Below are positions 30,129 through 53,700 of a stretch of DNA of 64,000 nucleotides, one piece after another. Position 1 is the first letter of the stretch, and every line of letters begins with the position of its first letter. Source of the stretch: a bacterium (GTDB lineage: Bacteria; Bacteroidota; Ignavibacteria; UBA10030); contig JAZDJN010000035.1 in assembly GCA_043803945.1 (NCBI GenBank), forward strand, positions 58,324 to 122,323. Direction: 5' to 3'. Below the pieces are notes generated by a model. It was not told the DNA's origin, did not search any database, and saw nothing but the letters and a program-made list of their open reading frames with translations. The position numbers and the translations under genes are program-made.

Positions 30129-30144
30129 TTCATTTTCCTCCGCG

Positions 30145-34212: not shown

Positions 34213-34252
34213 TTGAAAATAGATCCCACTTAAGGTATCTTGTAAATAAAAA

Positions 34253-34508: not shown

Positions 34509-36149
34509 CTATCTAACAAGTATCGCCTTCTTCGTTTCTTGTATTTGTTGATCAACAGTTAAGGTGTAATAGTAAACACCGGATGAAACCTTATTTCCTA
34601 CGGCATCACTTCCGTTCCATGGTACTCGATAATCCCCAGATTCTTGCACTTTTTCAACAAGCCTTATTATTTCTCTTCCCAAAGAATCGAATATTACCAA
34701 TTTTACAAGACCTCTCTTTATAATCGCGTATTCAATTGTGGTAGATGGATTAAAAGGATTGGGGTAGTTTTGACGGAGCTTAAAGTCTGTTGGAAAATCA
34801 CCTAACTCCTCAACAAGGGTAAACCAAGGATCTCCACTAAGAACCACGACATACCCATCCATTGAGTATGCACCATAATCTGCTGGGACGGTTGTGCCAA
34901 AATCATTCACACCATCACCGTTGATATCTCCAAGAGATGATGTTCTATCAAAAGCAGTACTTCCCACTAATCCTCTTGTTCGAATTCCTACTCGCTGCTG
35001 GGATAGTACTTTCCCACCTAGATAGACAAATATTGCTACACCGGGTGCCCCGACTACATAACATGGAACAGCAAAATCATTTATGCCATCCTTATTGACA
35101 TCTCCGATATCCGTTGCATAATGGCTGAAACGAAATGCTGTTGTGTCCGGACTCTTGAGAATAAAGCTAGGCTTCCAATCGACTGTATCCTGTCTGCCAA
35201 AAAACAATAATAAACTGATTAATCTATTACCCAAACATGAAATATCCATTACCCCATCATTATTTACATCTAAAAGATTAAAATATGGCAAGTTTTCAAT
35301 ATTTAATTCTTTCAATCCAAGTCTTTGATACGCGTGGCTCTTTGAGAATGTCCAATCTTTCCTCCCTAAAAATATTTCTAATGACCCCTTGAGTGTGTCT
35401 CCAGTAAGAGATCTTGAATCTGATCCTATACACAAATCTTTCAATCCATCCCCGTTTATGTCGCCTATTTTCACTTGTGTGCCAAACATTGATTTTATCT
35501 TTTCCCCTATTGCCGTAACATCGGGTGCAGTACTAAATATTGGTTTTCCGAAATACACATATACCTTTCCTTCTAACCTACCGTAATTGGGTGCACCAAT
35601 TACCAAGTCATTATACCCATCAGCATTGATATCTCCTATATCCATCGCCGAACCAAAACGGGTTTCACTTAATACTCCACCGGGCAACTCAGCTGGAATA
35701 GCCAATCCTGGTATCGTGTCCAATACCAACGGATTCGAAATTGTTGGTATTCGTCCAAAATATATAAAGACTGTATCGGGAGCATAGGAAGTATATATAC
35801 CTTGATGGACAATAAGATCCTTCTTACCATCTCCATTCAAGTCTCCCATCACCATGTTATCGCCACCTGAGAGAATGATGTCGGGCTTGTCATCGAGTAT
35901 TCTAGGACCACCAAAATAGATAAAGGTTTTACCAATCCCCTGAGCACTCACTGCGAAATCCGGCCAACCATCTCCATTGATATCTCCCAGTCCGAGAATA
36001 CCAGTACCAAGCATCATCTTCGATCCAGGCGTACCTTCTACTTCTAGAATGGTCTTTAGATATTGTGCGTTGACATGACCAGTTGATAAAATAATCAGAA
36101 CTATTATTGTTAATATATATCCAACTCGATCGAATAATTGTTTCATCAT
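34509..36149 (-). CDS. FG-GAP (integrin-alpha beta-propeller) repeat protein with T9SS type A sorting domain
   Basis: Signal peptide; multiple GDINGDG..D repeats, LVIGAP, VYVYFG; C-terminal QNYPNPFNPSTTIEY. Confidence 0.9.
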   Translation of the reverse strand: MMKQLFDRVGYILTIIVLIILSTGHVNAQYLKTILEVEGTPGSKMMLGTGILGLGDINGDGWPDFAVSAQGIGKTFIYFGGPRILDDKPDIILSGGDNMVMGDLNGDGKKDLIVHQGIYTSYAPDTVFIYFGRIPTISNPLVLDTIPGLAIPAELPGGVLSETRFGSAMDIGDINADGYNDLVIGAPNYGRLEGKVYVYFGKPIFSTAPDVTAIGEKIKSMFGTQVKIGDINGDGLKDLCIGSDSRSLTGDTLKGSLEIFLGRKDWTFSKSHAYQRLGLKELNIENLPYFNLLDVNNDGVMDISCLGNRLISLLLFFGRQDTVDWKPSFILKSPDTTAFRFSHYATDIGDVNKDGINDFAVPCYVVGAPGVAIFVYLGGKVLSQQRVGIRTRGLVGSTAFDRTSSLGDINGDGVNDFGTTVPADYGAYSMDGYVVVLSGDPWFTLVEELGDFPTDFKLRQNYPNPFNPSTTIEYAIIKRGLVKLVIFDSLGREIIRLVEKVQESGDYRVPWNGSDAVGNKVSSGVYYYTLTVDQQIQETKKAILVR

Positions 36150-36524
36150 TAAACACCTACCAGGTCAACAAATCACTTGAGAAACGATACATAGCTTGAC
36201 ATTTGTAAGTCCATATTTCAATCATTATTGTCCGAGCGCTCTTTTCAGAAGAAAATAATTTATTCATTCTTCTAGATTGTGAGCTTATGTCTTTATCCTT
36301 GTTGGATTCTATTATGTGTTTGCAGTTGGATGAAAGAAGGAGAACGGAAAGGATCAGTAGAATATAAGATTCATAGACCTGTCCGCAATAAAGATGGCAG
36401 TTCAGGTTCGTACCTTCAACAAAGTTGCTCCTCTTTACAGTCTCTTCTTTCTTCACGCGAATCAAACGGAGTACAACTCGCTATGGTGCTGGAAGAGGGT
36501 AGAAATAAAACTATTTATTGTCAA

Positions 36525-36905: not shown

Positions 36906-38672
36906 TTAAAAATATCCAATACGCTCTTCTCGTGCTCGCAAATCTCTAAATTGATTAACGGTGATTTGCGCTGACATCTTCTTCTCCCTCAAATCTTTGA
37001 CAGCCCGAACTCTTTCAACCGCTAACTGTATCGCTGTCTCAAGTGCATCAAAGATGTCGTCATGTGCTCCATCGGGAAAATCATTCAACTCTCCCTTTAC
37101 TAGAGCCATGCGTCCTTTAAGAAAGAATACTTTTCGATTTTGAAAGTATGGCTGAACTGCAAATCCTCTTGTAATCTTGTCACTCCCCCTGCTAACCTGC
37201 ACCGCTGGAACTTCAGTGGTTTCGATTAAATGTTGCTCCATCGCTGCCTGATATGCAACAGCTTCAATCCCAACCAACTGACTCCCCCACTTACGGTGTG
37301 TGGCAACGATAGCTCTCGTCTGCTCGCCAAACGTGTATTTATTTCTAACAAAATCCAAGCAGTAAATATTGAAATTGTAATCTACCCCAATAGTGAAGTC
37401 TACAAAGTAATCCGCTTTGTTGCTTTTACTCGACGCTAAATCTGTACCATCTACAATCACAAGATCATCAAAGTCCACGATCGCGCCATCCGAAAACCTC
37501 TTGATGTTTCCATCTGGCGTAAACTCAAAATCATTATCCATCCATGCCATCTGGAACACCTTGTTCTTTTCTTCTGTGATCTCCTGCTGCTGTTCCCTAT
37601 CAAACACCCATGGAGTTGTCGCATTCTCTAACTTCTTTTCTAACATCTTCTCGATTGGCCACATATCCGAAGCTAGAACCACCCCGTCATCGCTATGCTT
37701 AACCTCAACAAGTTTCGGAATGCCGTTCTCATCTTCCTTCATCACAAACTCATAGTGCGTCGGATACTTGATAATCGCCTTATCGATCCCGTATGTCCAC
37801 GTCGGCTTGTTCTGTGTCCGTTCATAGAGATCATCACTGTTCTTCCGGGTCCCAATCATCAGTGCCCACCCCTTTTCGTCCAATAACTCAAGGATCGTGG
37901 CATTGAACCAAGACTCTATATCGTCTCGCTTCTGCTGTGTGTCACTATCGTTTTTCTCTATAATGTCGTCCGCAATGATACCGTCAAACCTGGCACCAGT
38001 AATAGCCTGACCTGTACCGATTGCTTGTAACGTGGGATCTTTCAAACTATTATTTGACCGCCTTACATAGAACATATCCTTGCTCCATGTCCCGGAAAGA
38101 TCAACTTCCAGCCCTTGCTCGTCTAATCCCTTTGTCAAATTGCCGAAATCATAAATAATCCGATCGTTCGACTCAAACTGCCGGCGTATCGCTAACAGGT
38201 ATTTCTGAGCTTCATTGCCTACATTGGTGATGTGCAACAATCGAATGTTGTCCTGAAGACAAATCTTTCTTACAGGTAACTCAAAACTGTATATTCTCGA
38301 TTTGCCGTGCGATCGGGGGGCTAATTGCAGGTGACGACGCAACCCATAGTTCTTGCGCCATCTGTCTTGGTGAGCATAAGGCTTCAATCCTAAGTAATAC
38401 TGTCCAAAAAAAGACCGATTGAAGAAACCGGCATAGATACGTACTCCTGCCTGCCAATCTCTAATCGGTCGCTTGTAACCACAATCGTTGTCTAAGGCAA
38501 TCTCAAGAAGCCTGACTCTCACCGTATCAGTCAAGTGTGAACCACTCACCCTGAGAATCAAATTCTTTACTGCCTTTTCCTCTTCACTTTGAAAGTCCGA
38601 TTCGTAGAATCGATATCCTGACGAAGCAAGTTGGAACCACAACTCATAATCGCTATTGGTCCATTGCTTCAA
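36906..38672 (-). CDS. terL: Phage terminase large subunit
   Basis: Walker A LAPRSHGKS, Walker B GIIADDI, IGTR motif; RNase-H nuclease DGTDLAS...ADY and FPDGAHDDIFDAL. Confidence 0.92.
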   Translation of the reverse strand: MKQWTNSDYELWFQLASSGYRFYESDFQSEEEKAVKNLILRVSGSHLTDTVRVRLLEIALDNDCGYKRPIRDWQAGVRIYAGFFNRSFFGQYYLGLKPYAHQDRWRKNYGLRRHLQLAPRSHGKSRIYSFELPVRKICLQDNIRLLHITNVGNEAQKYLLAIRRQFESNDRIIYDFGNLTKGLDEQGLEVDLSGTWSKDMFYVRRSNNSLKDPTLQAIGTGQAITGARFDGIIADDIIEKNDSDTQQKRDDIESWFNATILELLDEKGWALMIGTRKNSDDLYERTQNKPTWTYGIDKAIIKYPTHYEFVMKEDENGIPKLVEVKHSDDGVVLASDMWPIEKMLEKKLENATTPWVFDREQQQEITEEKNKVFQMAWMDNDFEFTPDGNIKRFSDGAIVDFDDLVIVDGTDLASSKSNKADYFVDFTIGVDYNFNIYCLDFVRNKYTFGEQTRAIVATHRKWGSQLVGIEAVAYQAAMEQHLIETTEVPAVQVSRGSDKITRGFAVQPYFQNRKVFFLKGRMALVKGELNDFPDGAHDDIFDALETAIQLAVERVRAVKDLREKKMSAQITVNQFRDLRAREERIGYF

Positions 38673-39496
38673 CCTGAATCATTCTTCTTTCCTCCACTAT
38701 TGTTTCCCTCTGTCTCAACCATCACCGCAGGCGTTAATCCAATTTCCTTGTACAATATCTCTCTAAACTTTTTCTCTCTCTTCTCTCCTTCTAATCCCTC
38801 AAGCTGTGTCTGAATCCGGACAAACCGTTCGTTACGCTCACTCTGACTAATGTTTACCTGGCCGCCATCCCCTACGTTCACTTGCATGTTGATCGTCGGA
38901 TCTCCAAATCGTGGTTTCAAGCCCAACGATTGGTGTATCTCAATACTCTTGTCAATCATATCTACCCATCTGACAAGATTTTCCGTGTTATCCCTCATCG
39001 GCATACCTGTCTGGGCTTCTAACTTGAACAGCATCGCTACCCTGGTGTGCATCACGTTCAATGCATAGCGCAGATGTCCGAGATGATCGACATCTTCAAA
39101 AAATTCTGACGACCTTCTCAAGAATGATTGAATCTGTTGCTGAACTCCCAGCAAAGCGCCATACGCCGGGTCGCTCTTGTCAAGGGTCAGTTTCATTGTC
39201 TTCTGCAACTCTTCGCCAATGGTCGTAAGCTGATAGTTCAGTGTTTCTTTCAATTTCTTAACCGCTTCAGCATTGTTTGGATTAGCTAATTTCGTAGTAT
39301 TAACCAATTCCCTTAACTTCGCCTTTCGAGTTGCAAATGTCCGAACACTAAATCTCTCACCAAACCGTTCGCTTGCTTTCACCTTGACAACAGATGGCGG
39401 TAATCCTGATAACAAAAGAGCATCTATCTCTTTCAGATTTGGTGAGTCAGACAGCTTCTTACGGGGCTTCTTTCTTAATACATCTTCAATCTGCAT
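38669..39496 (-). CDS. Putative terminase small subunit
   Basis: 275 aa, helical with HTH-like N-terminus; 4-nt overlap with terL; called by position. Confidence 0.55.
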   Translation of the reverse strand: MQIEDVLRKKPRKKLSDSPNLKEIDALLLSGLPPSVVKVKASERFGERFSVRTFATRKAKLRELVNTTKLANPNNAEAVKKLKETLNYQLTTIGEELQKTMKLTLDKSDPAYGALLGVQQQIQSFLRRSSEFFEDVDHLGHLRYALNVMHTRVAMLFKLEAQTGMPMRDNTENLVRWVDMIDKSIEIHQSLGLKPRFGDPTINMQVNVGDGGQVNISQSERNERFVRIQTQLEGLEGEKREKKFREILYKEIGLTPAVMVETEGNNSGGKKNDSG

Positions 39497-39621: not shown

Positions 39622-40449
39622 TCATGTCCGCACCAACGAGCCATCTTTCACTATCTTTTCAGATTCTTTTTCCATTTGTCTCACCGGTGAGACACTTTCC
39701 ACGGATGGATTACCCATCAATTCCCGGAACACCTCATTGATGTCTTTGCCTGTTTCAATGGCTGTCCTCTTCATCCGGTCCGCGATCTGTTTGTTAGCTT
39801 CATCCATGATAATCCACAGATGGGTTTGACCACCAAAGCTGAATATCATATAACTCTTCTGCACAGTCCCACCATACTTGGAGAACATTTCATTCAACAC
39901 CGCAGCTAAGCCATCGATGGTTTTGATTTCCTTCTTGGCATTATCAAGAGCACCCTTCATATCGTCAGGAAGAGAACTCTTCACAGACATATACAGACTC
40001 TCAAATGCCGCTTTGTCGATAAACGCCATCATCTGCCGGGTAACATCATCACCATACTTCGACGATAGTTGATCGAACATCCTTGTGAATTTCAGCGGGT
40101 CAATCTTACCTTTGATAAGGTTGAATCGCATATTCTGGAACTTCTGCATATCCTCATCAAAGCTCCATTCCACAATGCAGGGAACTTCAATCTTGCCGGC
40201 CACCTTCGCCGCTTTTACTCGATGACTGCCGGAAACAGACAGATACCGACCTTCCATCCCTTTTTCTAAGCGGGGACATACCAACACCGGCTCTTTGACG
40301 CCTACTTCGGTGATATTCTTGACCAACAGGTTAAACGTCGCAGGATCCTCTTCATTGGGATTCCATTCCGGCTCGTCAATCAATTCAATCGGGATATATT
40401 CTATCGATATCCGTTGCTCAACTGCAACCTGTCTTTGTTTATTACTCAT
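39622..40449 (-). CDS. ParB/Srx N-terminal domain protein
   Basis: WNPNEE, LVKNITEVGVKEPVLV and VSGSHRVKAA (GxxR motif); likely start overlaps the GT stop. Confidence 0.85.
   Translation of the reverse strand: MSNKQRQVAVEQRISIEYIPIELIDEPEWNPNEEDPATFNLLVKNITEVGVKEPVLVCPRLEKGMEGRYLSVSGSHRVKAAKVAGKIEVPCIVEWSFDEDMQKFQNMRFNLIKGKIDPLKFTRMFDQLSSKYGDDVTRQMMAFIDKAAFESLYMSVKSSLPDDMKGALDNAKKEIKTIDGLAAVLNEMFSKYGGTVQKSYMIFSFGGQTHLWIIMDEANKQIADRMKRTAIETGKDINEVFRELMGNPSVESVSPVRQMEKESEKIVKDGSLVRT
39677..39694. promoter_or_regulatory. parS-like palindrome, copy 3 (3' end of the parB-like gene)
   Basis: TGTCTCACCGGTGAGACA, perfect. Confidence 0.75.
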
Positions 40450-41875
40450 ACGGCAATCCTTCACCTTTCTTAAATATCATAGTGTCGCTCTCGCAGGTGT
40501 CCCTGAACCCAATCTTCTCCAACACCAAGCGAACATCAAAGGGCAATGTCTCCCTACCGTTTAACCGGTCTGGATGCAGATAATCGACCTTTATCATCAT
40601 TCGCTTATTCAGGATCTCGATAAACGTGTCGAACTTGAACGGTTCATCAAATTCTAATGCGGTTTCACGAATTACATCCACAACCTCATTCTGCAATCCC
40701 AGCGACATGTTGACATCCATCTCTCTATTAATAGACTGTCTCAGAAAGTCGACGTGTGCCTTGAACGTCATATCTTTGTGATAATGCGTTCTGATATACT
40801 CTCTCGTGGGCTCTATCTTGCGTAGGGCTGCAGGGTAATCCTTCTCAATCTCTGCAAGCCACATGTAGGCTTCATCCATCGAACGATAAATAAATGGGTA
40901 ATTTTTCGGAATCATTTCCCATACATACTTACGATCGGGGAACACTCCAATCAGTCCAAGATAAAGCTGCTCAACAATGAAATTAGAGGCATTTTCTCCC
41001 TCAGACGTTACAATGAATGCATGGCACTTGGATGCTTCTTCGAAATACTTCTGGCGGGGACAACTGGTGTAAAGATACTTGATACACCCCTGCAAGAATT
41101 CAGTCATAAACTTCTTCTTCTCGAGCGTCCCATCAGGATTGGGTGTTGTCATAATAATGTCAATTGGACGACCAGACGAATAGAACCGATCATAAAGCTC
41201 GAATACCTTCTCGACCCTCTTAACGCTGTTAAACCGTGTTCCGTAAAACAGTGTGAACTTTTCATGCTTCTTGTTCTTCTTCAACAGCATGTCAAAGTAG
41301 TCAATCTCCAATCCGACGGTGAGCTTCAAGGTCTTTTCGTCAAATAGATTACACAGGTCTGGAGATAAATACTTCCTAACCAGGTCTTGCGTGTTCGCAT
41401 ATGATTCGTCACCGTAAATGATGGAATCGCAAACCACCAATGACATTGCATAAACCGCATCATACAAGTCCCTCTCCTTTGCGAACTCTACCAATACCGG
41501 CTGACGGAATACTACAGGATACTTATACCTTCGTTTGTTGTGAATTGCCGCATGCTTCCAGAACATCCCGACGTGATGCCGGGATGTGAACATTCCGTCT
41601 GTTATGATTCTTCCGCTGGCCCAATTAAACATCTTCCAGAAATCAATCGACGTTACATGCTCGTTGGTGTTGAATCCACGACTCTCCGGAATGCCGATGA
41701 TCTTCGTGCGTGGCATCTCTTCAACCTTGTCCTTGAAGTGTTCCGGCACAACGAAATAGAAATACATATCGTCATAGAATTTCGTGGCAACATCAATCAT
41801 CTTCTTGTATCCGTAATAGTCGCTGTCAGCGTGAATGTTGCTCAACCCGATGTTTGGTAACAATACTATTCTCAT
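40442..41875 (-). CDS. GT-B fold glycosyltransferase
   Basis: TLFYGTRFNSVKRVE and YFEEASKCHAFIVTSEGENASNFIVEQLYLG (E-x7-E motif of GT4-like enzymes). Confidence 0.75.
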   Translation of the reverse strand: MRIVLLPNIGLSNIHADSDYYGYKKMIDVATKFYDDMYFYFVVPEHFKDKVEEMPRTKIIGIPESRGFNTNEHVTSIDFWKMFNWASGRIITDGMFTSRHHVGMFWKHAAIHNKRRYKYPVVFRQPVLVEFAKERDLYDAVYAMSLVVCDSIIYGDESYANTQDLVRKYLSPDLCNLFDEKTLKLTVGLEIDYFDMLLKKNKKHEKFTLFYGTRFNSVKRVEKVFELYDRFYSSGRPIDIIMTTPNPDGTLEKKKFMTEFLQGCIKYLYTSCPRQKYFEEASKCHAFIVTSEGENASNFIVEQLYLGLIGVFPDRKYVWEMIPKNYPFIYRSMDEAYMWLAEIEKDYPAALRKIEPTREYIRTHYHKDMTFKAHVDFLRQSINREMDVNMSLGLQNEVVDVIRETALEFDEPFKFDTFIEILNKRMMIKVDYLHPDRLNGRETLPFDVRLVLEKIGFRDTCESDTMIFKKGEGLPYE

Positions 41876-42546
41876 AGCTTCACCAGCTTTATCACTTCAA
41901 ATGCCTCTGCATAATGGCGGCCAACCTGCATGCCCCTAAACTGAGCAAGGATTCTTATTCCCTCACTGCTTCTGGGGAATGGATACTCCATAACCTCTGT
42001 GTAATATTCTTCCATCGCTTCAATCTTGATCTGGACATCTTTCTCTTGCAGCGTGACAAAATAATTTGGAGAAAACTGGCGACCCTGCATAGCCCCGGAG
42101 ATCAATTCTGTTGAAGAGAGAATTTCGTAGGCATATGCCGCAATCAAATACGGAGACTTGAATGACCGAATGGCTACTACTGTCGCCTCAAACACAGCTC
42201 GATGGTCTTGGTTCACATCACCATGATGGTGAGTGTAAACAATCTCTGGCTGATACTCTGAGAACACCCTTTCGATGGGGCGAACGGTATCTACTAAGCA
42301 CCGGTCTAAATATTTATCCGGCTGATTACCATGGTCAATTCTGGAAACACCCAGTTTCTCTGCTACCCGCTTTGCTTGTTGATTGAGCATGGATACCGTC
42401 TCGACATCAACCCTGCCATCGAAGGTTCGATCGCTTACATTGAGAACTATTACTTCATCACCTTGAGATACGTGGCGCTGGATAGTCCCTCCAACTCCAA
42501 GTACTTCATCGTCCAGGTGCGCTGCAATAACAAGAACTCTGCTCAT
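41872..42546 (-). CDS. PIG-L/LmbE-family N-acetylsugar deacetylase
   Basis: VIAAHLDDEVLGVGGTI, YTHHHGDVNQDH, FRG..VG..YAEAF; ATG at 42546 with RBS. Confidence 0.9.
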   Translation of the reverse strand: MSRVLVIAAHLDDEVLGVGGTIQRHVSQGDEVIVLNVSDRTFDGRVDVETVSMLNQQAKRVAEKLGVSRIDHGNQPDKYLDRCLVDTVRPIERVFSEYQPEIVYTHHHGDVNQDHRAVFEATVVAIRSFKSPYLIAAYAYEILSSTELISGAMQGRQFSPNYFVTLQEKDVQIKIEAMEEYYTEVMEYPFPRSSEGIRILAQFRGMQVGRHYAEAFEVIKLVKL

Positions 42547-42553
42547 TATCCTC

Positions 42554-42799
42554 TTATCTGATTTGGTCAAACTCCAGATTGCGAATACCTTCAAGGTCTG
42601 GCTGTGTCATATACGCAATCACTTGAAGCATCTCCATGTCTGCATGAATCAATTTGTCGACGGTTTCCTGAGTAACACTGAACACCCTTTGATGCTTTCT
42701 CCACAGAATGTCCTTCCTCCTTCGATATTCAAACGAAAACCTGTAAACGCCTTTGCCTCTACTTCCAGGCGCGTCAGGACTAACTAACTTGCCCATCAT
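42554..42799 (-). CDS. Hypothetical protein in the modification operon
   Basis: 81 aa; fills the gap between wbqC-like and PIG-L genes and overlaps the wbqC-like stop. Confidence 0.5.
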   Translation of the reverse strand: MMGKLVSPDAPGSRGKGVYRFSFEYRRRKDILWRKHQRVFSVTQETVDKLIHADMEMLQVIAYMTQPDLEGIRNLEFDQIR

Positions 42800-43499
42800 T
42801 CACTCCTAAGTATTGTTTGACTTTCGGACCAACTCGGAACAGAGCATCAAGAATCGAGAGATTCCTCTCTTCGTGAGACTCTGTATAAAACGGCTCAATA
42901 AATTCGCAAGAATCTATCTGGATATTGTTCTTCGCAAACTCTTCTGTATGCAGATAGGTAATCAATGCACTTTTCCCGCACACATAGACATCACCATTTA
43001 CACTCTTTGTTAACTCCATCATCCACTTGCTGGGGCTATCGACTAACGGCTCCATCAAGGAACAATCCACCAACGTGTACTGTGGAGTGACCCCAAGATA
43101 TTTGGAGGCCAGCAACATCGAATGACGGGAGAACGCAGCAAGTGTGGCTGGCTTCAAGTTGTAAACCTCTTCAATAACCGGCATGATCTCCTTGAAATAT
43201 GGGGTCTTGCTGTAGTTCATCTGGAACGTCTTGAGATGTTTCTCTACCCATCGCTGGCTATAATCAATCTGGGCATCCCTGATCGTCAGTTCTCTGTCTC
43301 CGCTGTGCTTAATAGGAATCACCAGTGGAAATTTTTCCCCGCTAACCATTATCTCGATATGACGAAACGACCGGCCACTGTTGCGAGTAAACTGTGCTGA
43401 CGACAAGATGATCGAATACTTGCAAGACAGAATCCGAGCAAACAGATACATTGGCGGAAACGGACACGGCTGATTTATCGTAACTCTTGTTTGAATCAT
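42780..43499 (-). CDS. WbqC-family protein
   Basis: INQPCPFP...AQF...R..I, WVEKHLKTFQMNYSKTPYF and NLSILDALFRVG. Confidence 0.85.
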   Translation of the reverse strand: MIQTRVTINQPCPFPPMYLFARILSCKYSIILSSAQFTRNSGRSFRHIEIMVSGEKFPLVIPIKHSGDRELTIRDAQIDYSQRWVEKHLKTFQMNYSKTPYFKEIMPVIEEVYNLKPATLAAFSRHSMLLASKYLGVTPQYTLVDCSLMEPLVDSPSKWMMELTKSVNGDVYVCGKSALITYLHTEEFAKNNIQIDSCEFIEPFYTESHEERNLSILDALFRVGPKVKQYLGVNDGQVS

Positions 43500-43544
43500 T
43501 ACTCTATCTGTTCATTATGTTGATCATTCAGTTGAAAAAATTTA

Positions 43545-44255
43545 CTACTCGTCTGCCGGCTTCTTCTCTTTCATCTTCTTCAAAAGATTGTGAGCTTCCC
43601 AAAACTCTTCCATGCCAAGTTCCGGATCGATCTTCCCATGCTTCTTGAACATCAATACCCGTGTAAGGATGCCGACCATCTCACCGCCAAATCTCCGGTC
43701 AATCAATTCCCACCTGCCTTCAGCTCGAAACTGATTGCCAAGAGATGTATGAAAATCTACTGCCCACGATGGTATCGGTTCTGGCACAATCTTCTTATTG
43801 CTGTCCATCACACATCGCTTCTCCACATTCAGCAATTCCCTAATAACTTCAACACCGAGAGGATCTTCCCAACCCTTCGTGCATCGGCAGAGGTAGGCAT
43901 TAACGAAATAGAAATGATTCCAGATATCCGGAACATTCTTTTCTGTCATTATCAATAACGATGCTGTAAGATTCATCGCTCGATCGTCCCAGCAATCTTC
44001 ACCGGCAAATACCGCCATTCGCATCGCGATGTAATAATTGTTCATCGTGTTCGACATGACGTTAAGCCAGTACATCGAATCCTGTAATCGGCCCAGCCTG
44101 AGAGCTTTTATCCAAGCTGATACACAGTCTTTTGATCCCTTCTTATCGTCTTGACCAGTTGTCTCTGTCATGTCCGTAAACTCCTCTTCTCCAGCTTTGA
44201 CAGCTCGGCTCCCACCGAACATATCGTCTTGTTCACCACTACGCTTTCGTCCCAT
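43545..44255 (-). CDS. Stand-alone MgsA/RarA C-terminal-like helical domain protein, no ATPase
   Basis: VSAWIKALRLG...MYWL, RMAVFAGED, YLCRCTK and IPSWAVDFHT; no Walker A. Confidence 0.6.
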   Translation of the reverse strand: MGRKRSGEQDDMFGGSRAVKAGEEEFTDMTETTGQDDKKGSKDCVSAWIKALRLGRLQDSMYWLNVMSNTMNNYYIAMRMAVFAGEDCWDDRAMNLTASLLIMTEKNVPDIWNHFYFVNAYLCRCTKGWEDPLGVEVIRELLNVEKRCVMDSNKKIVPEPIPSWAVDFHTSLGNQFRAEGRWELIDRRFGGEMVGILTRVLMFKKHGKIDPELGMEEFWEAHNLLKKMKEKKPADE

Positions 44256-44323
44256 TGTCCCTCGTTCTGTTTTGTGTTATGATAGTAATGATAACTATTA
44301 TAGTGTGAGATGGTAAGCTCTTG

Positions 44324-45214
44324 TCAGTTTATATTTCTACGCATCTCATACAACAGCCTGCCTTGATACATCATTACACGCTTGATACGATTAACTGGCA
44401 TCATCGCGACTATCTCTGCAGCATTTAGGCGACCTGCGACATCAACAAGCCGGTAATACATATGCTTGCCAAACCCGTTGAGTTCTGGTTCGTAAAACCC
44501 ACTGAGGAAAGTTACCCTGCGTTCAATCATATCATCAAGCAAGAACATGATGCCTACCTTCTTGTCCTTCCCATAGAATGTGACAACCCTCAATGCTGAG
44601 ATCCGCTTCAGGTATCCAAGCACTCCAACGAACGATGCAAGGAAGTCCTCATTCTCAAATCTGGATTCCGCACCCAACCGGCCAAACGCTAATCGCTTCA
44701 ACAGGCTGATATCTTCCAACGTGAAGACACCTTTCACGTTGTAGCCAATCGTTTTCTCGTACTTCAGTGCTTCATCTATGATCTGCTTGTCCTTCTTCGA
44801 TTCTTGGAACAAACCAACATACCACGACAACGTCGATCTGCTGGGCAAAGGAAGAAATGCCTGCCTGTCTTCCATTTCCGACATCCCAGGCAATGCATCA
44901 AGGCTATACTCGAGCATTAACTTGTTGTTCTCCAGCCATTCATGCATTCGCAGAAAAGATTCTTCCGATACCGGAAGACGATATCCTTCTCCCCAATACT
45001 GGCCAAGCACCTCCACCCTGTCCTTTATCCGACATAGAGGCAAAATTCCGTGAGGTCTGCTGCCAATAGAAACTACCAGCGCGAATACCTCTGTGAACGC
45101 AGGGGACAGCCCTGCTAACTTATATTCAATTCGATCAACTAATGCTCGTGACTTGTTCAGGCTCTCATACGCAGTCTTTATCCAAGCTAAATCCAACGTC
45201 TCAAATACCTTCAT
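44324..45214 (-). CDS. GNAT/FemABX-like acyltransferase, paralog B
   Basis: 296 aa from ATG 45214; LVDRIEYKL, GILPLC and FLSGFY...GFGKHMY; collinear with 45201-46076. Confidence 0.6.
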   Translation of the reverse strand: MKVFETLDLAWIKTAYESLNKSRALVDRIEYKLAGLSPAFTEVFALVVSIGSRPHGILPLCRIKDRVEVLGQYWGEGYRLPVSEESFLRMHEWLENNKLMLEYSLDALPGMSEMEDRQAFLPLPSRSTLSWYVGLFQESKKDKQIIDEALKYEKTIGYNVKGVFTLEDISLLKRLAFGRLGAESRFENEDFLASFVGVLGYLKRISALRVVTFYGKDKKVGIMFLLDDMIERRVTFLSGFYEPELNGFGKHMYYRLVDVAGRLNAAEIVAMMPVNRIKRVMMYQGRLLYEMRRNIN

Positions 45215-46076
45215 ACAGCCTCTCATAGCAATACATTGGAACACCGGTGAATTGCATGTCACTTTTAACACGATACATCGGGGACATGGCTGAGACCTTG
45301 CTGCAACCAAGCGTGCAGGCGATATCAACGTACGTTATATACATATACTTGCCGAAATTATTATGACCACTGTCAAAGAATCCCAGCAAGAATGTCAAAC
45401 TCCCGTCAATGCGATCATGGCTCAAAAATGCCACACCGACATTCTGTGCCTTAATCGTGTAGTTCACTACAACCAACGACTTAACAGATGTCAAATACCT
45501 GCATAAACCCAGGAACGATTCTGCACGATCAGATTCGGTAATCCTGGAGTTCGCTCCTAACCGTTCCCGGCTGAACAATACCAATCGTTCAAAATCCTCT
45601 TCGTCAAATCCGTATTTCACACCAAAGTCTGCAACCTCATAATATACTGCCGCCTTCTTCAAGTCCCTGCGAGCGTCTGACCGATTGAACATATGCAAAT
45701 AGTCAGACATTCGAGAAAACGAAACAACAGACGATTCAACAGGCATCTGCCTCATACCTGGACGATTCTCTCTACAGTATTGGATAGCTACGGGACACTC
45801 TAACCGCTCCTGCATTTCATTCCATACTTCATTTGAGAATGGTAGAACATACCCCTCTGCCCAAAACTGTCCAATCATCTCCGTCCGACCACGAAACTTG
45901 CACAGGGGAAGCATGCCAATCATTTTGTCGTTCTCTAAGGCAACAAGTGCATGAATATCCGTAAATGACTTCGACAAGGTTGACAGCTTGTATTCAATTC
46001 TATCAACAAGACGACCTTCATCTTTGCCGGCAAATCTTCTGATTGCCTCTGCATCAAGTATAGTCTCAATCGTCAT
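45201..46076 (-). CDS. GNAT/FemABX-like acyltransferase, paralog A
   Basis: LVDRIEYKL, GMLPLC, DYL...ARRDLKKA and FLLGFFD...FGKYMY: two-lobed Acetyltransf_6-type layout. Confidence 0.6.
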   Translation of the reverse strand: MTIETILDAEAIRRFAGKDEGRLVDRIEYKLSTLSKSFTDIHALVALENDKMIGMLPLCKFRGRTEMIGQFWAEGYVLPFSNEVWNEMQERLECPVAIQYCRENRPGMRQMPVESSVVSFSRMSDYLHMFNRSDARRDLKKAAVYYEVADFGVKYGFDEEDFERLVLFSRERLGANSRITESDRAESFLGLCRYLTSVKSLVVVNYTIKAQNVGVAFLSHDRIDGSLTFLLGFFDSGHNNFGKYMYITYVDIACTLGCSKVSAMSPMYRVKSDMQFTGVPMYCYERLYEGI

Positions 46077-47335
46077 ATCAAACCCACTCTCTGCAGAAAC
46101 GGCAATTCATCTTTCACACGTTCTCCGATGTCTGTCCGATAAACTTTGTCTTGGAACGATACCTTCTCTGCACCACTGAGCATATTGAAACGAGCTTCAT
46201 CTATGGTGTTTCCATTGCCGACAACACACATTACCCAGGGATGAGCGACAAACAGCTTGCTGTCCCTCGCTGTGACGTCTCCAAAGGTGTGATGGCAATT
46301 CAATTTGTCATATCCACGAATCTCCGAACCTAGCTGACACAGATTAGGGAACAACTCATGATACCCATATCCACACACAACAAGGTTCGCTCCTACTGCA
46401 TATTCCTTCGTGTGAACTAAAAGTGTTTCATCCATCTTCCCGTTAGCTACACTGAGCAAAAACTCTCCATAAGCTCCACCAGACCATTTGAGCAATGACG
46501 TCATTATGTCGGTAATCGGGACTCCGAACCGGCAAGTGAATTCTAGCGCATACACAAGACCGAACTCATCGACGATACAGTTGACATCAATCAATCCTCT
46601 GTAGTTCTCGAGATACCGTGACGCTTCTTTGGACTGCAATAGAGAATCCATCAATTCCTTCACGCTCGGTGTCGGGGAGTAAACCGCTACCGTCCCCATC
46701 TCTGGGACAAGTATCCCCATGTTACCATTGAACATATGCTTATGCTCGAAGTTGGTGACAGTCGGAACAAATCGTTCACCATCGTAGTATGCTGAGAATG
46801 CAACCTCAACACCGCACACCCTTTCTTCTAAAACAACTCTGCCATCCTTAGCATCTCTCAGAAAGCGAATTGCATCATTGGTGTCGTTAAACACCGCTGT
46901 TCGCATTGGACGATTCGTTGTGCTAAATTTCACAACCACACTTTTCATCTCTCCGGATTCAAGATATCGAATAGCATCTGCGCTCGATTCAAATACCATC
47001 CACTTCGGACATTTAAACCCGCTCTCTGAAAATATCTTACGACCGACATTCTTCTCTTCCATCTGGAAACCAACTACTCCTGAACCTACCGTCGGGATTC
47101 CTCTTGCTCTGAACTCTTCGACAATACCACAAGTGTTGGTGTACGTATTGCACGACACAACAAGGTCCCACTTCTTATCCAACACGTTGCTATAGTTGGG
47201 AAGAAATCCAAGCGTACTACCCCAGCGAGAAGTGCCATAATGGTCATTCGTCGCAAATATGTCATGACCCTCGTGAGTCAACACCTGGGCAAGTGCATCC
47301 GAAATATTTCCATGATCGAGCAACAATATTCTCAT
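46073..47335 (-). CDS. PurD-like ATP-grasp amine-carboxylate ligase
   Basis: VVLEERVCGVE, EHKHMFNGNMG..EMG, LEFTCRFGVP and YRTDIG follow GAR-synthetase motifs but are divergent (no GLAAGKGV loop). Confidence 0.8.
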   Translation of the reverse strand: MRILLLDHGNISDALAQVLTHEGHDIFATNDHYGTSRWGSTLGFLPNYSNVLDKKWDLVVSCNTYTNTCGIVEEFRARGIPTVGSGVVGFQMEEKNVGRKIFSESGFKCPKWMVFESSADAIRYLESGEMKSVVVKFSTTNRPMRTAVFNDTNDAIRFLRDAKDGRVVLEERVCGVEVAFSAYYDGERFVPTVTNFEHKHMFNGNMGILVPEMGTVAVYSPTPSVKELMDSLLQSKEASRYLENYRGLIDVNCIVDEFGLVYALEFTCRFGVPITDIMTSLLKWSGGAYGEFLLSVANGKMDETLLVHTKEYAVGANLVVCGYGYHELFPNLCQLGSEIRGYDKLNCHHTFGDVTARDSKLFVAHPWVMCVVGNGNTIDEARFNMLSGAEKVSFQDKVYRTDIGERVKDELPFLQRVGLI

Positions 47336-47339
47336 CCAG

Positions 47340-47990
47340 TTACCTCAACAATGTCAAAGTCTCAAAACCGTGAACGTGCGAATGGTCGAGACGAACTCTG
47401 TCTGTAAGGTCAAGCGCCATCTCCAGCATGTGCTTCGGACAGGGTAGATGCCATCTGTCGAGACGTGCACCTGTCCGATGAGCCATACCATAACTATTGA
47501 AGTTCAACACACACGCAACCTTGCAGAGATCGAACATCTTCTCTAATCTGTTCCATACCCATTCGTACGGATTCTCCGATACCAATGCATAGGACAACAA
47601 CCCGCTTGAAAATACGAAATCACAGTTTTCACCACCGAAGTCCAAAATATCTCCGTGATAGTACAACGCATCAGGAAACTCTGCCTTACCAACATCAAGC
47701 AGCTCCTTGCAGAGATCCACACAAACATATCGAGACACCTTAACTTTATCTTTGACGAATCCATACAAATCCATTCGCCCTCCACCTGCATCAAGTATAC
47801 TGCAGCCATCGAACAACTCTACCTGTTTGACTAACTCTGAGATCAGGTGAAATTGGAATCCACTGTTGGGCCATACTACCGCATCAATACTGCGAGCTCC
47901 ATATTGGGCTATCATGTTTTTATGAAACTCTGCAGGATGAACAAAACTTTCCATAGAATATTGAGTTGAATATGGGATGTTGAACAGCAC
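47340..47990 (-). CDS. Class I SAM-dependent methyltransferase
   Basis: SILDAGGG..DLY, VCVDLC and DFVFSSGLLSY. Confidence 0.85.
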   Translation of the reverse strand: MLFNIPYSTQYSMESFVHPAEFHKNMIAQYGARSIDAVVWPNSGFQFHLISELVKQVELFDGCSILDAGGGRMDLYGFVKDKVKVSRYVCVDLCKELLDVGKAEFPDALYYHGDILDFGGENCDFVFSSGLLSYALVSENPYEWVWNRLEKMFDLCKVACVLNFNSYGMAHRTGARLDRWHLPCPKHMLEMALDLTDRVRLDHSHVHGFETLTLLR

Positions 47991-48626: not shown

Positions 48627-49445
48627 CTACTCCACATTGATAAAGATGCGATTTCCACTCACAACGACCTTCTCGGTGGTGATATACACCCCCTTAATCT
48701 CTCTGCCCCTTTGTGCAGGCTCTGCGGTCGCGATCATTTCATACCAGCCGGACAATCCGATCTTTTTCGTAGCCTCAGTTAAAGAGACCTCAGTCTTGCC
48801 CTTCTCGTTTGAATTGGCTATCGACACGACTTCCCGATCTGTCCTTTCTTGTTCTTGATTGCGGGCAGAGGTTCCGCTTTTCTCATCGACACTGTATTTG
48901 GCATCAACAACAAAACCACCCTTTGCATTGTGAGGTGAATTGTATCGCGTATCTCCCTGCTCATTCAAGGACTTCACAAGATCCACCCTTGTCAAATCGA
49001 GCAATCCCAGCAGCTTCGCCTTTGTCTTGTTCCACCCCTTGCCTTGCACATCGACATAGGGAATGATAATTTCCAGCTTAGAGATGCTTCGACCGGCTAC
49101 TTCGCTTTCTGTGAACGCTCCAGACTCGATATACACCTCAAATATTTTGATGTATCGATATGCCGTCGCTCTCTCGATGTCAACATCCGAGTTCTCGGTC
49201 CATTCACTAAAAGAATTGAATCCCAACACCTTATACCAACGATTGTCCCGAATATTCTTCAATCGCCTTCCCAGACTGAAGAACAACAACAAGATGTTTT
49301 GCTTCTCATCCAGAATCCTCCTCTCTTCATCAAAAGCCTGCTTAATCTCCTTCTTCGATAACACTGAGCCAACATCTTCTGTGCTTACATTATCCAGCGG
49401 ATGTACTCCAGCTACCTTGCTAATTTCTTTGGTTGTCTGAACCAT
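48627..49445 (-). CDS. Phage DNA-binding protein (DUF3102-like with HTH)
   Basis: LGRRLKNIRD.RWY...GFNSFSEW...IERATAYRYIKIFE. Confidence 0.6.
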   Translation of the reverse strand: MVQTTKEISKVAGVHPLDNVSTEDVGSVLSKKEIKQAFDEERRILDEKQNILLLFFSLGRRLKNIRDNRWYKVLGFNSFSEWTENSDVDIERATAYRYIKIFEVYIESGAFTESEVAGRSISKLEIIIPYVDVQGKGWNKTKAKLLGLLDLTRVDLVKSLNEQGDTRYNSPHNAKGGFVVDAKYSVDEKSGTSARNQEQERTDREVVSIANSNEKGKTEVSLTEATKKIGLSGWYEMIATAEPAQRGREIKGVYITTEKVVVSGNRIFINVE

Positions 49446-50751: not shown

Positions 50752-53700
50752 TTAAAAACAAAGCTGATATTGTTCAACGACCTTCGATCCTGATCGGACC
50801 GATGGGAATGGTATTGCTTCTACTCCCTCAATTTCGGGATCTGCTGCAATCCTTCGAGCTATATTGACGTGATAATCCTCTATCAGCTTTTGCTCTACAT
50901 CGTCTTCATCCAGCAGCCCTTCAGTCCCCATCTTATGCGATTTGATGATCTCACGTGCCATCTTGTAGAAATCTACCTGCACCTCTTCCTGATCGATGAG
51001 CTTACCATCCAAGGCCAAATCGCTGGACTGACCCTTCAAATCTATAATCTCAAACAGTTGTTTCTGGTCAATTCCACCATCCGTGTAAAGCATAAACACG
51101 TCAATGTCCTCTTTCGACGTGAACCGGTGCACCCTGTCGATAGCCTGTCTGGTCGTGCTGTGGTCCCACTCGTAATCCGTCATTATCACTGCTGACGCAT
51201 TGTCCAAATTATGTCCAAGATTCACAGCCTGTATGCCAGCCACCAACACGCTAAAATTCTTTTTCTTGAAATCTGCAATTAGCATGCTGCGCTTAACTGG
51301 TATCGTATCAGCGTTCGCTACTTCAGATCGAATTCCATACCGTGTAAGCAACTGCTTGATGAAGTTCATATTATCCTGCAGTGCACTAAAAACTACAACC
51401 TGCTTCCCTCGGTCAACGTATTCTTTGACCTTCGTGAGGACAAACATCGCTTTCTCTGTGTAAGGGGATTTACCTGCTTCCCCAAGAAAGAACTCGTGCT
51501 CTTTACCCGGCGCCGGCTTCCCTTGCAATAGCCGGGAGTTTGGAATGGTTGCCGTCAATCTCAGTTTCCACAATAGCCCCAGAATCATCTCTTTCATCTT
51601 AACTGCATCATCTTCCATCTCAGTGTGATGCGAAGCTTTGAACCATTCCGAAAAATTCTTAATCCACCAATCATATACCCGCTTCTGGTCTTTGGTGAAT
51701 CCGACTTTGATTCGATGGACATTTTTCTTCACCAACGTTTCACCGCAATCAATCTTCAACCTTCTGACGATCGACGGGGCAAACATTTTCCAGAGCAAAG
51801 GCAGGTTGCCAATCTCAGGAAGCAGCTTCTTCCGGCCTTTCGACAAGCTCTTTCTAAATTCTTCTGCCACATATTCAAAGACGCCAAAATCATCTAAGAA
51901 TTTTTCCGTCCCGCCAACATACCGATACGGAAACCTTGGGCTCCCATCACCAAGCGTCCAATGCAACAACCAGAACGCATCAGTAATCCAGCCCTTGATT
52001 GGTGAGCCTGATAATAATAGCCTGTTCTTGGCATGCAGCGACCTCACCGCTATACCCTGCATGCTGTGTTTCGATTTGATCTTTACCCCTTCATCGACAA
52101 TCACAGTGTCAAAGGCATGTTTGAGGTAGGAGAACATTCCCTTCACCCTGCGTAGCCAACAATGGTATCCGCACTTCTTACAGGATCTTCCGTTCCACCC
52201 ATCGTATCGCATTGCCTTGCAGCGTGGACAGAGAGCGTTCCACTTCTCGTCGTAATCATCCTCAACCTGGATTGCTTTGCCAAACTCAGGAACCAGCTCA
52301 TCCAGCCTGCGCGATCCCTTGAGCAGTTCATAATGGATTATCCAGTACCCAGATTTGGCGTTCTTGATTCGTTTCACATCACCGTAGCCACGAATTTCCT
52401 CCAGATGAATTCCAAGCGACTTGGCTTCCTCAATCCACTGGTATTTCAAATCCTGCGGACACACCACAAGAGCTTTCTTCGCATTCCTGACCTTTGACCA
52501 TGCCAGCGATCCTCTACACTTTCCTAAACCCTGCTCCCAGGCCAATACACAGGATTCTTTCATGCAAAGCCGTGACAAATCTTCTATCTGAAATTCCAAC
52601 AACGTGAACTTCTCGAATTCTTCCGACTCCAAACGCTTACGAATCCTCTGATACAATTTCGGTTTCTTCGACTTCACGTCAAGAGGATCCGGAACATCGA
52701 AATGATTGATCATCAACGAGATATCTTCTTGCGACTCAGAGAAATAACACCCACCGATGTCAACCAGCAACGCCTTCTTCGTCTTAATCATTTCAGTCTT
52801 TAACCCGTTTGCGCCGCGTTCTTTTACGTAGTGGACCTGAACGTCTGTCGAAGAAACATTCACATCGTATTCTGCTCCAGACTCAAACTGGAAATTTCCA
52901 TTCTTGCCTCTATGCACAAAACTACGTGTGCATTTTATCTTGTCGATCAGCTCCAAATATCCTAGCCGCTGTTGTGGCCTCAACGGATACATCGGAGTCA
53001 AAATGAATTCTGCATCTGCTACCGCCTTGTTTATGGCTTCCAATGCCCCATGCGACATTGTTACCAGTGTCTTATCCTGAACCATCGCAAGCAGGTCACG
53101 TCTATCCTGCGTGTTGAATGCGAAATACGATGGAGCCAGTCCATGCATCGATTTCAGTATCGATCGCTCTCTTTGAGAGTATTCCTTCTGGAGAATGTAT
53201 TCCAAATAGTTCGACAGGTGAACGGTCAACCGCCCACCGTTAAACTCGATGTTGAATTTCTGCTGTTTCTTCTTCTTGCGTTCTGCGTATTCTGCATGGG
53301 CAGCTCTGAACCGCTTGTCGTTTTCCTCTATCGCTTCCTTAGTCTCGTATGAGGATGTCCACAGTCTATGGAACTGCCTAGCCTTGATAACAGCACTCTG
53401 AATCAGACCGAGTCGATAATCCACATCTACAGCGTTCATATCGACATCCAAATCATGTTCACTAGCGTCAGCGTAGACTTTCTTCTTTGCAAAGAAACAT
53501 AGAACAGTCTCTACTTTGGAATGTGGAAGGAAGGCATTTCGAATTGTCGCTGCCATATACACCCGGTCATTGATCTCGTCAACCTTTGACAAGGAATTTT
53601 GCCAGGAAGTCTTCTGAACAAGAAATGCCCCATGACCATTGCTGGCCAGCAGGTTAATTCCCATCAGTATCGTTGCTTCCTGAGACTCTATAGACTTGTC

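Follow-up and report, generated by a model that had tools for sequence, protein, structure and literature searches.

The window analysed here, a 64,000-nucleotide stretch of contig JAZDJN010000035.1 from an Ignavibacteria bacterium, forms the final 64 kb of a contig of 122 kb in a 5.5-Mb genome, and its long open reading frames (ORFs) lie nearly all on the minus strand. At positions 39622-47990 it carries a cassette of ten co-directional minus-strand genes, tightly packed and with intact reading frames, which encode in order of transcription a methyltransferase, a PurD-like ATP-grasp ligase, two FemAB-like GNAT paralogs, an MgsA_C-like protein, a WbqC-family protein, an 81-aa ORF, a PIG-L/LmbE-family de-N-acetylase, a glycosyltransferase (GT) and a ParB-CTPase-fold protein. 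A sequence-only reading of the window had named these families and described many of the genes as translationally coupled; all of the families are present where it placed them, and the coupling was borne out by 4-nt overlaps at the PurD/GNAT-A and PIG-L/GT junctions, as also between TerS and TerL downstream, with short overlaps or gaps elsewhere. Judged by sequence comparison, the cluster is far beyond chance, its gene order being repeated in related loci (designated below by L numbers). The same reading had noted the lack of flippase, Wzy, Wzz and membrane proteins, and our scans agree: no Pfam or NCBIfam match to Wzx, Wzy, Wzz, a ligase or an initiating transferase was found among the ten genes, and none of the ten proteins has a 19-residue window of membrane-helix-type hydrophobicity (maximum mean Kyte-Doolittle value 1.65). 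Its further remark that nucleotide-sugar genes are lacking holds for the window and fails for the relatives, where such genes are present.

The first gene (47340..47990) encodes a putative class I SAM-dependent methyltransferase of the small-molecule type (216 aa), assigned from weak matches (Methyltransf_11 at E 1.2e-3 and Methyltransf_11/25 at about 1e-3, below the cut-off; TIGR04325 at 4e-4) and from a local jackhmmer search that tied it to the Pfam-positive methyltransferase of L030/L040; homologues occupy the equivalent position in L005/L009 and L010. The ATP-grasp protein (46073..47335, 420 aa; GARS_A 3.2e-16, GARS_C 2e-8), which is conserved in L005, L006, L010, L023 and L030, matched PurD entries of the PDB at up to 2.8e-23 and TIGR00877 at 2e-38, yet its score of 132.4 bits lies below the equivalog cut-off of 288, and therefore it is not the purine enzyme. 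It is PurD-like in fold and likely so in chemistry, and is a divergent paralog and not the housekeeping PurD. GNAT paralog A (45201..46076, 291 aa) gave no Pfam, PHROG, NCBIfam or PDB sequence match, and neither paralog matched any Pfam family at E<=0.01, so that profile membership in PF13480, PF02388 or PF04339 was not attained. Paralog A was identified as a FemAB-like/Acetyltransf_6 GNAT from the ESM Atlas, where 23 of its 30 feature matches fall in a PF13480 set (score 0.95), and from its structure, which superimposes on PF13480/FemAB_like clusters of the same atlas with TM 0.85-0.86 (FemAB_like being named in one row). Paralog B (44324..45214; 296 aa from the ATG at 45214, within an ORF open to 45328) is 38% identical to paralog A over 269 aa (E 7e-57); relatives hold a single copy.

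Next to the GNATs lies a stand-alone protein with a putative MgsA_C (RarA/MgsA C-terminal) domain (43545..44255, 236 aa; PRK13341 at E 1e-3), which falls in mostly viral clusters of the ESM Atlas, MgsA_C being named there by structure with TM 0.52-0.53, and which has homologues in gp80 of Arthrobacter phage Kitkat and in many viral loci. The WbqC-family protein (42780..43499, 239 aa) matches PF08889 at 1.1e-36 (127.2 bits against a cut-off of 21.3), and no PDB relative of it was found; the family is termed uncharacterised in PMC5532660. The 81-aa ORF (42554..42799) sits where some relatives carry an SDR gene; it has no family match and no homologue in any fetched locus, and the notion that it is a remnant of that gene was rejected, as it shows no similarity to SDR. 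The de-N-acetylase (41872..42546, with a likely start at the ATG at 42546 of an ORF open to 42594) matches PF02585 at 3.3e-23 (83 bits against 28.2) and phrog_11796 at 3.5e-31, and its translation contains 'AAHLDDE' and 'NQDH', presumably the metal-binding His/Asp motifs. Its best NCBIfam match is BshB1 (3.9e-12; 46 bits against 182.5), and because no equivalog cut-off is reached we treat it as a family member without assignable substrate. Single-sequence and close-family searches of the PDB gave no significant match for the GT, GNAT-A, the MgsA_C-like protein or WbqC.

The GT (40442..41875, 477 aa) was assigned by profile and fold as a GT4-like glycosyltransferase of the GT-B fold with a helical C-terminal extension. 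The single protein matched phrog_30253 at 5e-20; it matched no Pfam family at E<=0.01 and did not attain the gathering score of Glycos_transf_1 (PF00534). A word-indexed search gave just 12 close relatives. A profile search brought in 580 cluster representatives at E<=1e-3, of which 127 reached E<=1e-30, and most were full-length. An AlphaFold (AF2) model built from 130 sequences (pLDDT 95, pTM 0.93), which superseded an unusable one from 10 sequences (pLDDT 52), has the two predicted Rossmann-like domains of the GT-B fold, and Foldseek matched it in the PDB to PglA (5e-13), BshA (3.3e-11) and MshA (1.3e-10) with probability 1.00, and also to SenB and glycogen synthase; the 130-sequence profile matched TreT (8.9e-7) and also WbaZ, PglA and MshA. 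In the C-terminal domain E294 and E302, 8 residues apart, fit an EX7E-type pair, which we take to be the GT4-type motif, and conservation is at least 90% for E302 in the 130-sequence alignment and for E294 in the close family. Close matches in a viral structure library (TM 0.8-0.9) were Arthrobacter-phage 'glycosyltransferases'. Among 401 genomes of the phylum, the only full-length match was that of the window's own genome (506 bits); the next matches, at no more than 71 bits and partial, are therefore ordinary GT4 genes, and with no full-length family member in the 400 other genomes the GT is not a host lipopolysaccharide (LPS) enzyme. Single-protein scans of viral contigs with the GT or GNAT-A found no relatives, and with the close-family GT alignment such a scan yielded no more than two weak matches of 31 residues. 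From these sequence comparisons the GT is the founding member of a ParB-linked phage GT family.

The last gene of the cassette (39622..40449) encodes a 275-aa protein that matches PF02195 (ParB_N) at 27.1 bits against a cut-off of 26.3 and phrog_26387 at 3.9e-60, and whose C-terminal domain is conserved and of no known family. Its profile matched Noc (1.7e-13) and ParB (2e-12) in the PDB over residues 4-136 only; the DNA clamps Noc, ParB and KorB come closest to the N-terminal domain, ahead of sulfiredoxin and SerK. TIGR00180 was matched at 34.7 bits against a cut-off of 58.45, and no ParA was found among the scanned neighbours; by its profile matches, the protein has the ParB-CTPase fold and is not a partition ParB. 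The sequence-only reading had placed the cassette directly upstream of terS/terL. For the large terminase subunit, TerL (36906..38672, minus strand), this is secured by phrog_38 (4e-68), and the protein is 65-71% identical in relatives L005-L013. The putative TerS (38669..39496, minus strand, 275 aa), for which no Pfam or PHROG match was found, is assigned by its position and by its membership of a conserved helical family that lies directly after ParB in many loci.

The coupling of the GT to this ParB extends well beyond the window. All 15 GT-seeded IMG/VR loci, obtained with a distant GT sub-alignment, carry the same type of ParB downstream on the same strand, and 39 of 45 ParB-seeded viral loci contain a match to the GT-family HMM (35 of 41 without 4 near-duplicate loci; 36 of 41 by BLAST clustering). 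Four of the six misses are short contigs that end just upstream of ParB and two are true misses, which keep DegT, or SDR with PIG-L and MgsA_C. The two counts are not independent, because 6 ParB-seeded loci share contigs with GT-seeded ones. The neighbourhood search proposed in the sequence-only reading thus linked the GT to ParB and terminase, and the homologues, which that reading allowed might lie mainly in host LPS or exopolysaccharide (EPS) loci away from terminase, instead form a viral, ParB/terminase-linked family. On this comparative evidence, GT-ParB coupling is near-obligate in very different phages, and the GT-ParB pair is the core of the cassette, around which PIG-L, WbqC, MgsA_C, sugar dehydratases, aminotransferases and methyltransferases vary. 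The pair was found in phages of Arthrobacter, Rhodobacter, Agrobacterium, Stenotrophomonas, Rhizobium and Vibrio, and on contigs of Ignavibacteriaceae and Chitinophagales metagenome-assembled genomes (MAGs), the carriers spanning genomes of 58-110 kb and differing widely in virion genes. With hosts so different (Actinomycetota, Pseudomonadota, Ignavibacteria, Chitinophagales), a host surface glycan is a less likely shared acceptor than phage DNA or a phage protein. A ParB has been reported to activate the phage DNA-modifying 5mYOX enzymes (thymine dioxygenases) on double-stranded DNA (PMC13229309), and Burke et al. relay a proposal by Aravind that ParB directs modification machinery during packaging (PMC8256090). 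In the ParB-CTPase survey PMC12704722, the words glycosyltransferase, terminase, MgsA, sugar and 'DNA modification' are absent.

Two MAG contigs (Ignavibacteriaceae and Chitinophagales) and 14 metagenome loci came from scanning with the GT alignment. Where sequence is present, the relatives share the order methyltransferase, PurD-like ligase, one GNAT, MgsA_C, DegT aminotransferase, WbqC, SDR, PIG-L, GT, ParB, TerS-like protein and TerL, which is complete in L005 (L009 has an identical match table) and L010; L006 begins inside PurD and has an extra radical-SAM gene. The GT is preceded by PIG-L in 14 of 16 loci and followed by ParB in all 8 loci that reach that far. Compared with these relatives, the window has neither the DegT nor the SDR gene present in L005, L006 and L010, a duplicated GNAT and an orphan ORF at the SDR position. 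The closest fragment, L016, whose GT is 81% identical over its first 86 residues, has WbqC directly beside PIG-L and likewise no SDR, so the SDR-less cassette recurs in a close relative. In L005, from the Ignavibacteriaceae MAG, the sole Fem-like GNAT (4964-5919) is split into overlapping ORFs (4964-5554 and 5551-5919), by either a frameshift or an assembly error.

Among the 41 distinct ParB-seeded loci (BLAST clustering), TerS-like proteins were found in 33, TerL-like in 28, PIG-L in 19, MgsA_C-like in 17 plus 8, SDR in 16, WbqC in 14 and DegT in 12. Pfam searches of 132 otherwise unassigned upstream ORFs recovered mostly nucleotide-sugar enzymes, with Epimerase (SDR) 17 times, Polysacc_synt_2 15 times (best 2e-95), DegT 12 times (best 2e-101) and UDP-GlcNAc 2-epimerase 3 times. 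Between the GT and ParB, 9 of the 41 loci (L049, L052, L065 and L074 included) carry a gene with a dCTP-deaminase-like/dUTPase fold (PF22769, best 1.7e-23), which by its family would tie the cassette to deoxynucleotide metabolism. One complete 71-kb phage genome with terminal repeats holds PIG-L, MgsA_C, methyltransferase, PurD-like ligase, WbqC, GT, SDR, GT and ParB in a single run.

Several carriers are cultured phages. Kitkat has, besides the MgsA_C-like gp80, two GT-family genes (gp88 and gp93) and the ParB gp95; its GT-ParB pair lies among DNA-metabolism genes, and a separate GT (gp29) lies in the tail module. Rhodobacter phage RcTiptonus shows the order GT, small ORF, ParB, ORF and then terminase. 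In Stenotrophomonas phage DLP3 (MT110073.1) the order is PIG-L-WcaG-WecE-MTase-x-x-GT-x-ParB-x-TerL (MTase, methyltransferase), with matches to the family HMMs at 2e-47 for the GT and 7e-92 for ParB. DLP3 DNA resisted 15 of 15 restriction enzymes (PMC7326821), and that of phage DLP5 was cut by only 4 of 36 (PMC5834331). The ParB of DLP5 was matched by tblastn, and the DLP3 paper tabulates DLP5 homologues of gp96-gp102 at 62-95% identity (PMC7326821), from which we infer that DLP5 has the cassette. Papers on Rhodobacter RcF phages and Arthrobacter cluster AT phages contained nothing on DNA modification, GT or ParB.

These comparisons lead us to favour, with modest confidence, the reading that the cassette is a phage late-operon set that builds a tailored amino-sugar adduct, most likely on the phage's own DNA. 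The adduct would be added after replication and before packaging. The GT would transfer an N-acetylhexosamine (HexNAc), probably N-acetylglucosamine (GlcNAc) from host UDP-GlcNAc, to the acceptor, with the ParB-CTPase-fold protein as its DNA-loading or activating partner, by analogy with the ParB-dependent phage thymine dioxygenases. PIG-L/LmbE would then strip the N-acetyl group, and the PurD-like ligase (with glycine or some other small carboxylate), WbqC and the pair of FemAB-like GNATs would re-acylate the exposed amine. The GNATs would draw on aminoacyl-tRNA or acyl-CoA and may, as paralogs, add successive residues; no tRNA gene that could supply them was found within the window. The methyltransferase would cap the product, the MgsA_C-like protein would be accessory, and the outcome would be a bulky, probably cationic adduct that blocks nucleases. 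Several of these reactions have parallels: pairs of GT4 and LmbE enzymes transfer GlcNAc and then deacetylate it in the making of mycothiol, bacillithiol, glycosylphosphatidylinositol (GPI) and aminoglycosides, the characterised LmbE enzymes acting after sugar transfer; PurD-type ligases couple a carboxylate, which for PurD is glycine, to an amine borne on a sugar; and FemAB-type GNATs transfer amino acids from aminoacyl-tRNA onto amines. From this chemistry and the company of WbqC, a series from HexNAc through hexosamine (HexN) and N-aminoacyl- or N-acyl-HexN to a methylated product is to be expected. The same succession of HexNAc transfer, deacetylation, acylation and methylation had been put forward in the sequence-only reading; the family assignments fit it, and the steps themselves are read from the families.

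The choice of DNA as the target gains comparative support from the near-obligate GT-ParB coupling, the published role of ParB as a dioxygenase activator and the two restriction-resistant carriers, which together tip the balance, if only slightly, towards a DNA adduct of the kind that the sequence-only reading had proposed. We regard as doubtful a more specific proposal, in which the ParB-loaded GT4 enzyme would glycosylate phage DNA directly, without pyrimidine hydroxylation, and the HexNAc, once on the DNA, would lose its acetyl group and receive aminoacyl groups, in part from aminoacyl-tRNA by way of the Fem-like GNATs or WbqC. Candidate acceptors, none in use by any known system, would be an exocyclic amine, an oxygen of the backbone or of a terminus, or a base supplied by an unrecognised enzyme.

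A number of points weigh against a DNA target. To our knowledge, every characterised phage DNA glycosylation starts from 5-hydroxymethylcytosine (5hmC), 5-hydroxymethyluracil (5hmU) or 5-hydroxycytosine (5hoC), and the enzymes expected to make such acceptors were largely missing, in keeping with the sequence-only reading, which had seen no TET/JBP or hydroxymethylase. Tet_JBP (PF12851) was found in none of 13 phage records (0/10 from IMG/VR, 8 of them at least 90% complete, and 0/3 cultured) and nowhere over the cut-off in the window's own genome. ThyA (PF00303) was found in 1 of 10 phage records (1/7 IMG/VR, 0/3 cultured) and in none of the 6 IMG/VR records at least 90% complete, the lone match being weak (30.8 bits) and in the 86%-complete record G005; the one PF00303 match in the window's own genome lies on another contig, and the contig breaks off within the phage of the window. 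TGT was absent from the 3 cultured phage genomes. Divergent 5mYOXs can escape PF12851 (PMC13229309). Proteins considered as a hidden hydroxylase were rejected. The TerS-like protein is helical, with an HTH-like alignment that lacks an HxD motif. Upstream of the cassette, a 272-aa helical protein (48627..49445, minus strand) with a weak DUF3102 match belongs to a family often found a few kb upstream of the cassette, and its L005 homologue (37% identical) was drawn by local jackhmmer into a family of about 297 aa present in 9 of 41 viral loci; this protein and this family are likewise helical, with no HxD-type motif in the alignment.

The fold matches of the GT point the same way, being generic GT4 enzymes (PglA, BshA, MshA, SenB) with lipid-linked or small-molecule acceptors, and T4 beta-glucosyltransferase was not among the matches of the Foldseek comparison that the sequence-only reading had called for. 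Relatives carry UDP-sugar-level enzymes of the sort usual in ordinary glycan synthesis. For DLP3 and DLP5, resistance to restriction is a correlation that another pathway might explain: the table of the DLP3 paper annotates gp141 as a 'thymidylate synthase' (PMC7326821), which our Pfam searches did not recognise, and gp107, directly after TerL (14276-15169 of MT110073.1), matches ThyX (PF02511) weakly (E 1.8e-6, 23 bits) and is a possible nucleotide-modifying enzyme in the DLP3 lineage only, with no homologue in the window or the fetched loci. The link of the cassette to DNA is a comparative one, and part of the phage is outside view because the window stops at the contig end.

A protein acceptor, which we consider rather unlikely, would have the cassette glycosylate a protein of the virion (from the capsid, the tail tube or the giant fibre rich in Gly and Ser), or else a packaging protein or ParB, for virion stability or shielding. 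The cassette adjoins the packaging and structural module, no enzyme making a DNA acceptor was found, and the protein-glycosylating GT4 enzymes SdgB and Gtf1 are among the fold/profile matches of the GT. Mycobacteriophage virions are reportedly glycosylated by phage-encoded GTs and methyltransferases (Freeman et al. 2023), and the SDR of the DLP3 cassette (WcaG, gp97) was detected in the virion proteome of that phage (PMC7326821). However, the sole invariable partner of the GT is a ParB-CTPase-fold protein nearest to the DNA clamps Noc, ParB and KorB and not a structural protein, the carriers share little in virion genes or genome size, the Kitkat pair is set apart from the tail-module GT, and the DNA of DLP3 and DLP5 is restriction-resistant. 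As for the fibre, the ORF at 8520-21791 (4423 aa) is extremely repetitive, and the description of it as Ser/Thr-rich in the sequence-only reading did not hold, since it consists mainly of Gly (20%), Val (14%), Ser (13%) and Thr (7%).

It is improbable, in our view, that the cassette acts on a host or small-molecule acceptor, whether by remodelling a lipid-linked precursor of the cell envelope (lysogenic conversion, superinfection exclusion) or by making a bacillithiol-, mycothiol- or aminoglycoside-like metabolite. This would suit the top fold matches of the GT, namely PglA, with its undecaprenyl-diphosphate-linked (Und-PP-linked) acceptor, and BshA and MshA, with small-molecule acceptors, and it would suit the L006 set of GT4, LmbE, aminotransferase, SDR, ATP-grasp, GNAT and radical SAM, which resembles thiol-cofactor and aminoglycoside pathways. 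It is also close to the published annotations, the DLP5 authors having counted the genes for PIG-L, WecE and methyltransferase among morons that serve 'host cell membrane modification' (PMC5834331) and the DLP3 authors having described the cassette methyltransferase as Erm-like, with an effect on the minimum inhibitory concentration (MIC) in the lysogen (PMC7326821). Yet the ten proteins are without membrane segments, flippase, polymerase, ligase and initiating transferase are missing from the cluster, the 400 other phylum genomes hold no full-length member of the GT family, and this one family is shared by phages whose Gram-positive and Gram-negative hosts have unrelated envelopes; no BshC/MshC Cys-ligase model of NCBIfam matched any of the ten proteins, and a constant ParB-TerS-TerL linkage in one late operon is hard to square with a moron. 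The copy in this prophage might, finally, be a decaying or inactive remnant that makes nothing or a truncated product, which is compatible with any of the other readings and which we hold to be very improbable. The losses of DegT and SDR, the 81-aa ORF without homologue, the duplicated GNAT and some 10 kb of host-like, T9SS-cargo-like genes (T9SS, type IX secretion system) with the transposase of an IS element between TerL and the gene directly after it in L011 mean that the element may be decaying, a point that also tells against the DNA reading; on the other side, the ten frames are intact and tightly packed, the SDR-less WbqC/PIG-L arrangement recurs in L016, and the conserved residues of the GT (E294, E302), PIG-L and ParB are kept.

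If the favoured reading of a DNA target is true, it would provide a new entry route to DNA hypermodification, in which a sugar transferase and not a base hydroxylase is coupled to ParB; it would help to explain the resistance of DLP3 and DLP5 to almost every restriction enzyme, widen the roles of the ParB-CTPase fold and offer new enzymes for amine-tagging DNA. Direct glycosylation would be the first aminoacyl-aminosugar hypermodification of DNA, widespread in phages of at least 5 bacterial phyla, and an unhydroxylated base as acceptor would be categorically new. A virion-protein target would still mean an undescribed, widespread phage glycosylation system. In the literature searched we found no description of a GT-ParB amino-sugar cassette, nor of deacetylation with aminoacylation on a DNA-borne sugar.

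Analysis of the surroundings of the cassette revealed replication and recombination genes upstream, encoding a beta clamp, a DnaA-like ATPase and a UvrD-like helicase, together with an endonuclease, a SNF2-type helicase, an HNH nuclease and a phage metallopeptidase. The UvrD-like helicase (55972-58893) contains an intein, with Hint and LAGLIDADG/Hom_end homing-endonuclease domains at residues 30-286. The SNF2-type helicase (50752-54150, 1132 aa; SNF2-rel_dom 6e-15, Helicase_C 4e-14), a few kb upstream of the cassette, has a weak N6_Mtase match below the cut-off at residues 36-181 (E 0.006) and may have a separate function in DNA modification or anti-restriction. Downstream, the host-like block at 26700-36500, about 10 kb between TerL and the gene at 25270-26667 (the one directly after TerL in L011), contains an FG-GAP protein with a T9SS sorting domain, a 1095-aa Flg_new/fn3 protein, a second T9SS-tail protein, a TPR lipoprotein-like gene and, on the opposite strand, an rve-family transposase (27802-28872); from its gene content it would be either an insertion or cargo within the prophage. 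A strong GC and AT skew runs across 10-22 kb of the window.

Among known systems, the cassette is most readily set beside the ParB-dependent 5mYOX clade C1 clusters (O'Toole et al., PNAS 2026, PMC13229309), in which a non-canonical phage ParB likewise lies beside a modifying enzyme and near terminase. In both, ParB combines a nucleotide-binding N-terminal domain with a C-terminal domain and no evident HTH, and the 5mYOX clusters also have sugar and methyl tailoring genes nearby and modify post-replicatively (PMC13229309). Unlike them, the cassette has no PF12851 match in the window's genome or the 13 related phage records, and its ParB is partnered by a GT4-like GT. Known phage DNA glycosylation comprises the T4 alpha- and beta-GT, TET-linked GTs (PMC8256090; bioRxiv 10.1101/2023.12.21.572611) and the arabinosyl-5hoC of RB69 and Acinetobacter phage DLP3 (PMC13326640). 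Shared with it are phage GT-B enzymes, UDP-sugars and co-encoded nucleotide-sugar enzymes (for the cassette, in the relatives); GlcNAc transfer to DNA is documented in such systems, and Foldseek matches to BshA are reported for the DNA glycosyltransferases of Acinetobacter phage DLP3 (PMC13326640). It differs from the cassette in that no ThyA homologue or TET to make the hydroxyl acceptor was found here, and de-N-acetylation and re-acylation of the sugar go unmentioned in the papers on these systems: 'deacetylase', 'PIG-L' and 'ATP-grasp' occur 0 times in bioRxiv 10.1101/2023.12.21.572611, and 'deacetylase' occurs in a NAR text on phage DNA glycosylation in the reference list only.

In its chemistry the cassette resembles the pathways to bacillithiol (BshA/BshB/BshC) and mycothiol (MshA/MshB/MshC/MshD) and the PIG-A/PIG-L steps of GPI synthesis, where a GT4 enzyme transfers GlcNAc and an LmbE/PIG-L enzyme deacetylates it, followed by ATP-dependent ligation of an amino acid to the amine and then by a GNAT (MshD); BshA and MshA are among the top fold matches of the GT, and BshB1 is the best NCBIfam match of the cassette deacetylase. 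Unlike these pathways, the cassette has a PurD-like ligase with WbqC and Fem-like GNATs and no BshC/MshC-type match in NCBIfam, its genes are viral and tied to ParB and terminase, and its acceptor is apparently not malate or inositol phosphate. The trio of GT4, WbqC and LmbE recurs in bacterial proSx-GT4-WbqC-lmbE-tRNA(ProX)-murG operons together with a ProRS paralog and a tRNA (JBC 2023, PMC10404621), and its association there with aminoacyl-tRNA machinery suggests, by analogy, aminoacylation of a de-acetylated amino sugar; those operons differ in being cellular, murG-linked (cell wall) and without ParB or terminase. Because the defining dioxygenase and cysteine ligase are absent, the cassette belongs neither with the 5mYOX clusters nor with the bacillithiol and mycothiol pathways, and by analogy it would work like a mixture of the two, joining the ParB dependence of the former to the amino-sugar logic of the latter.

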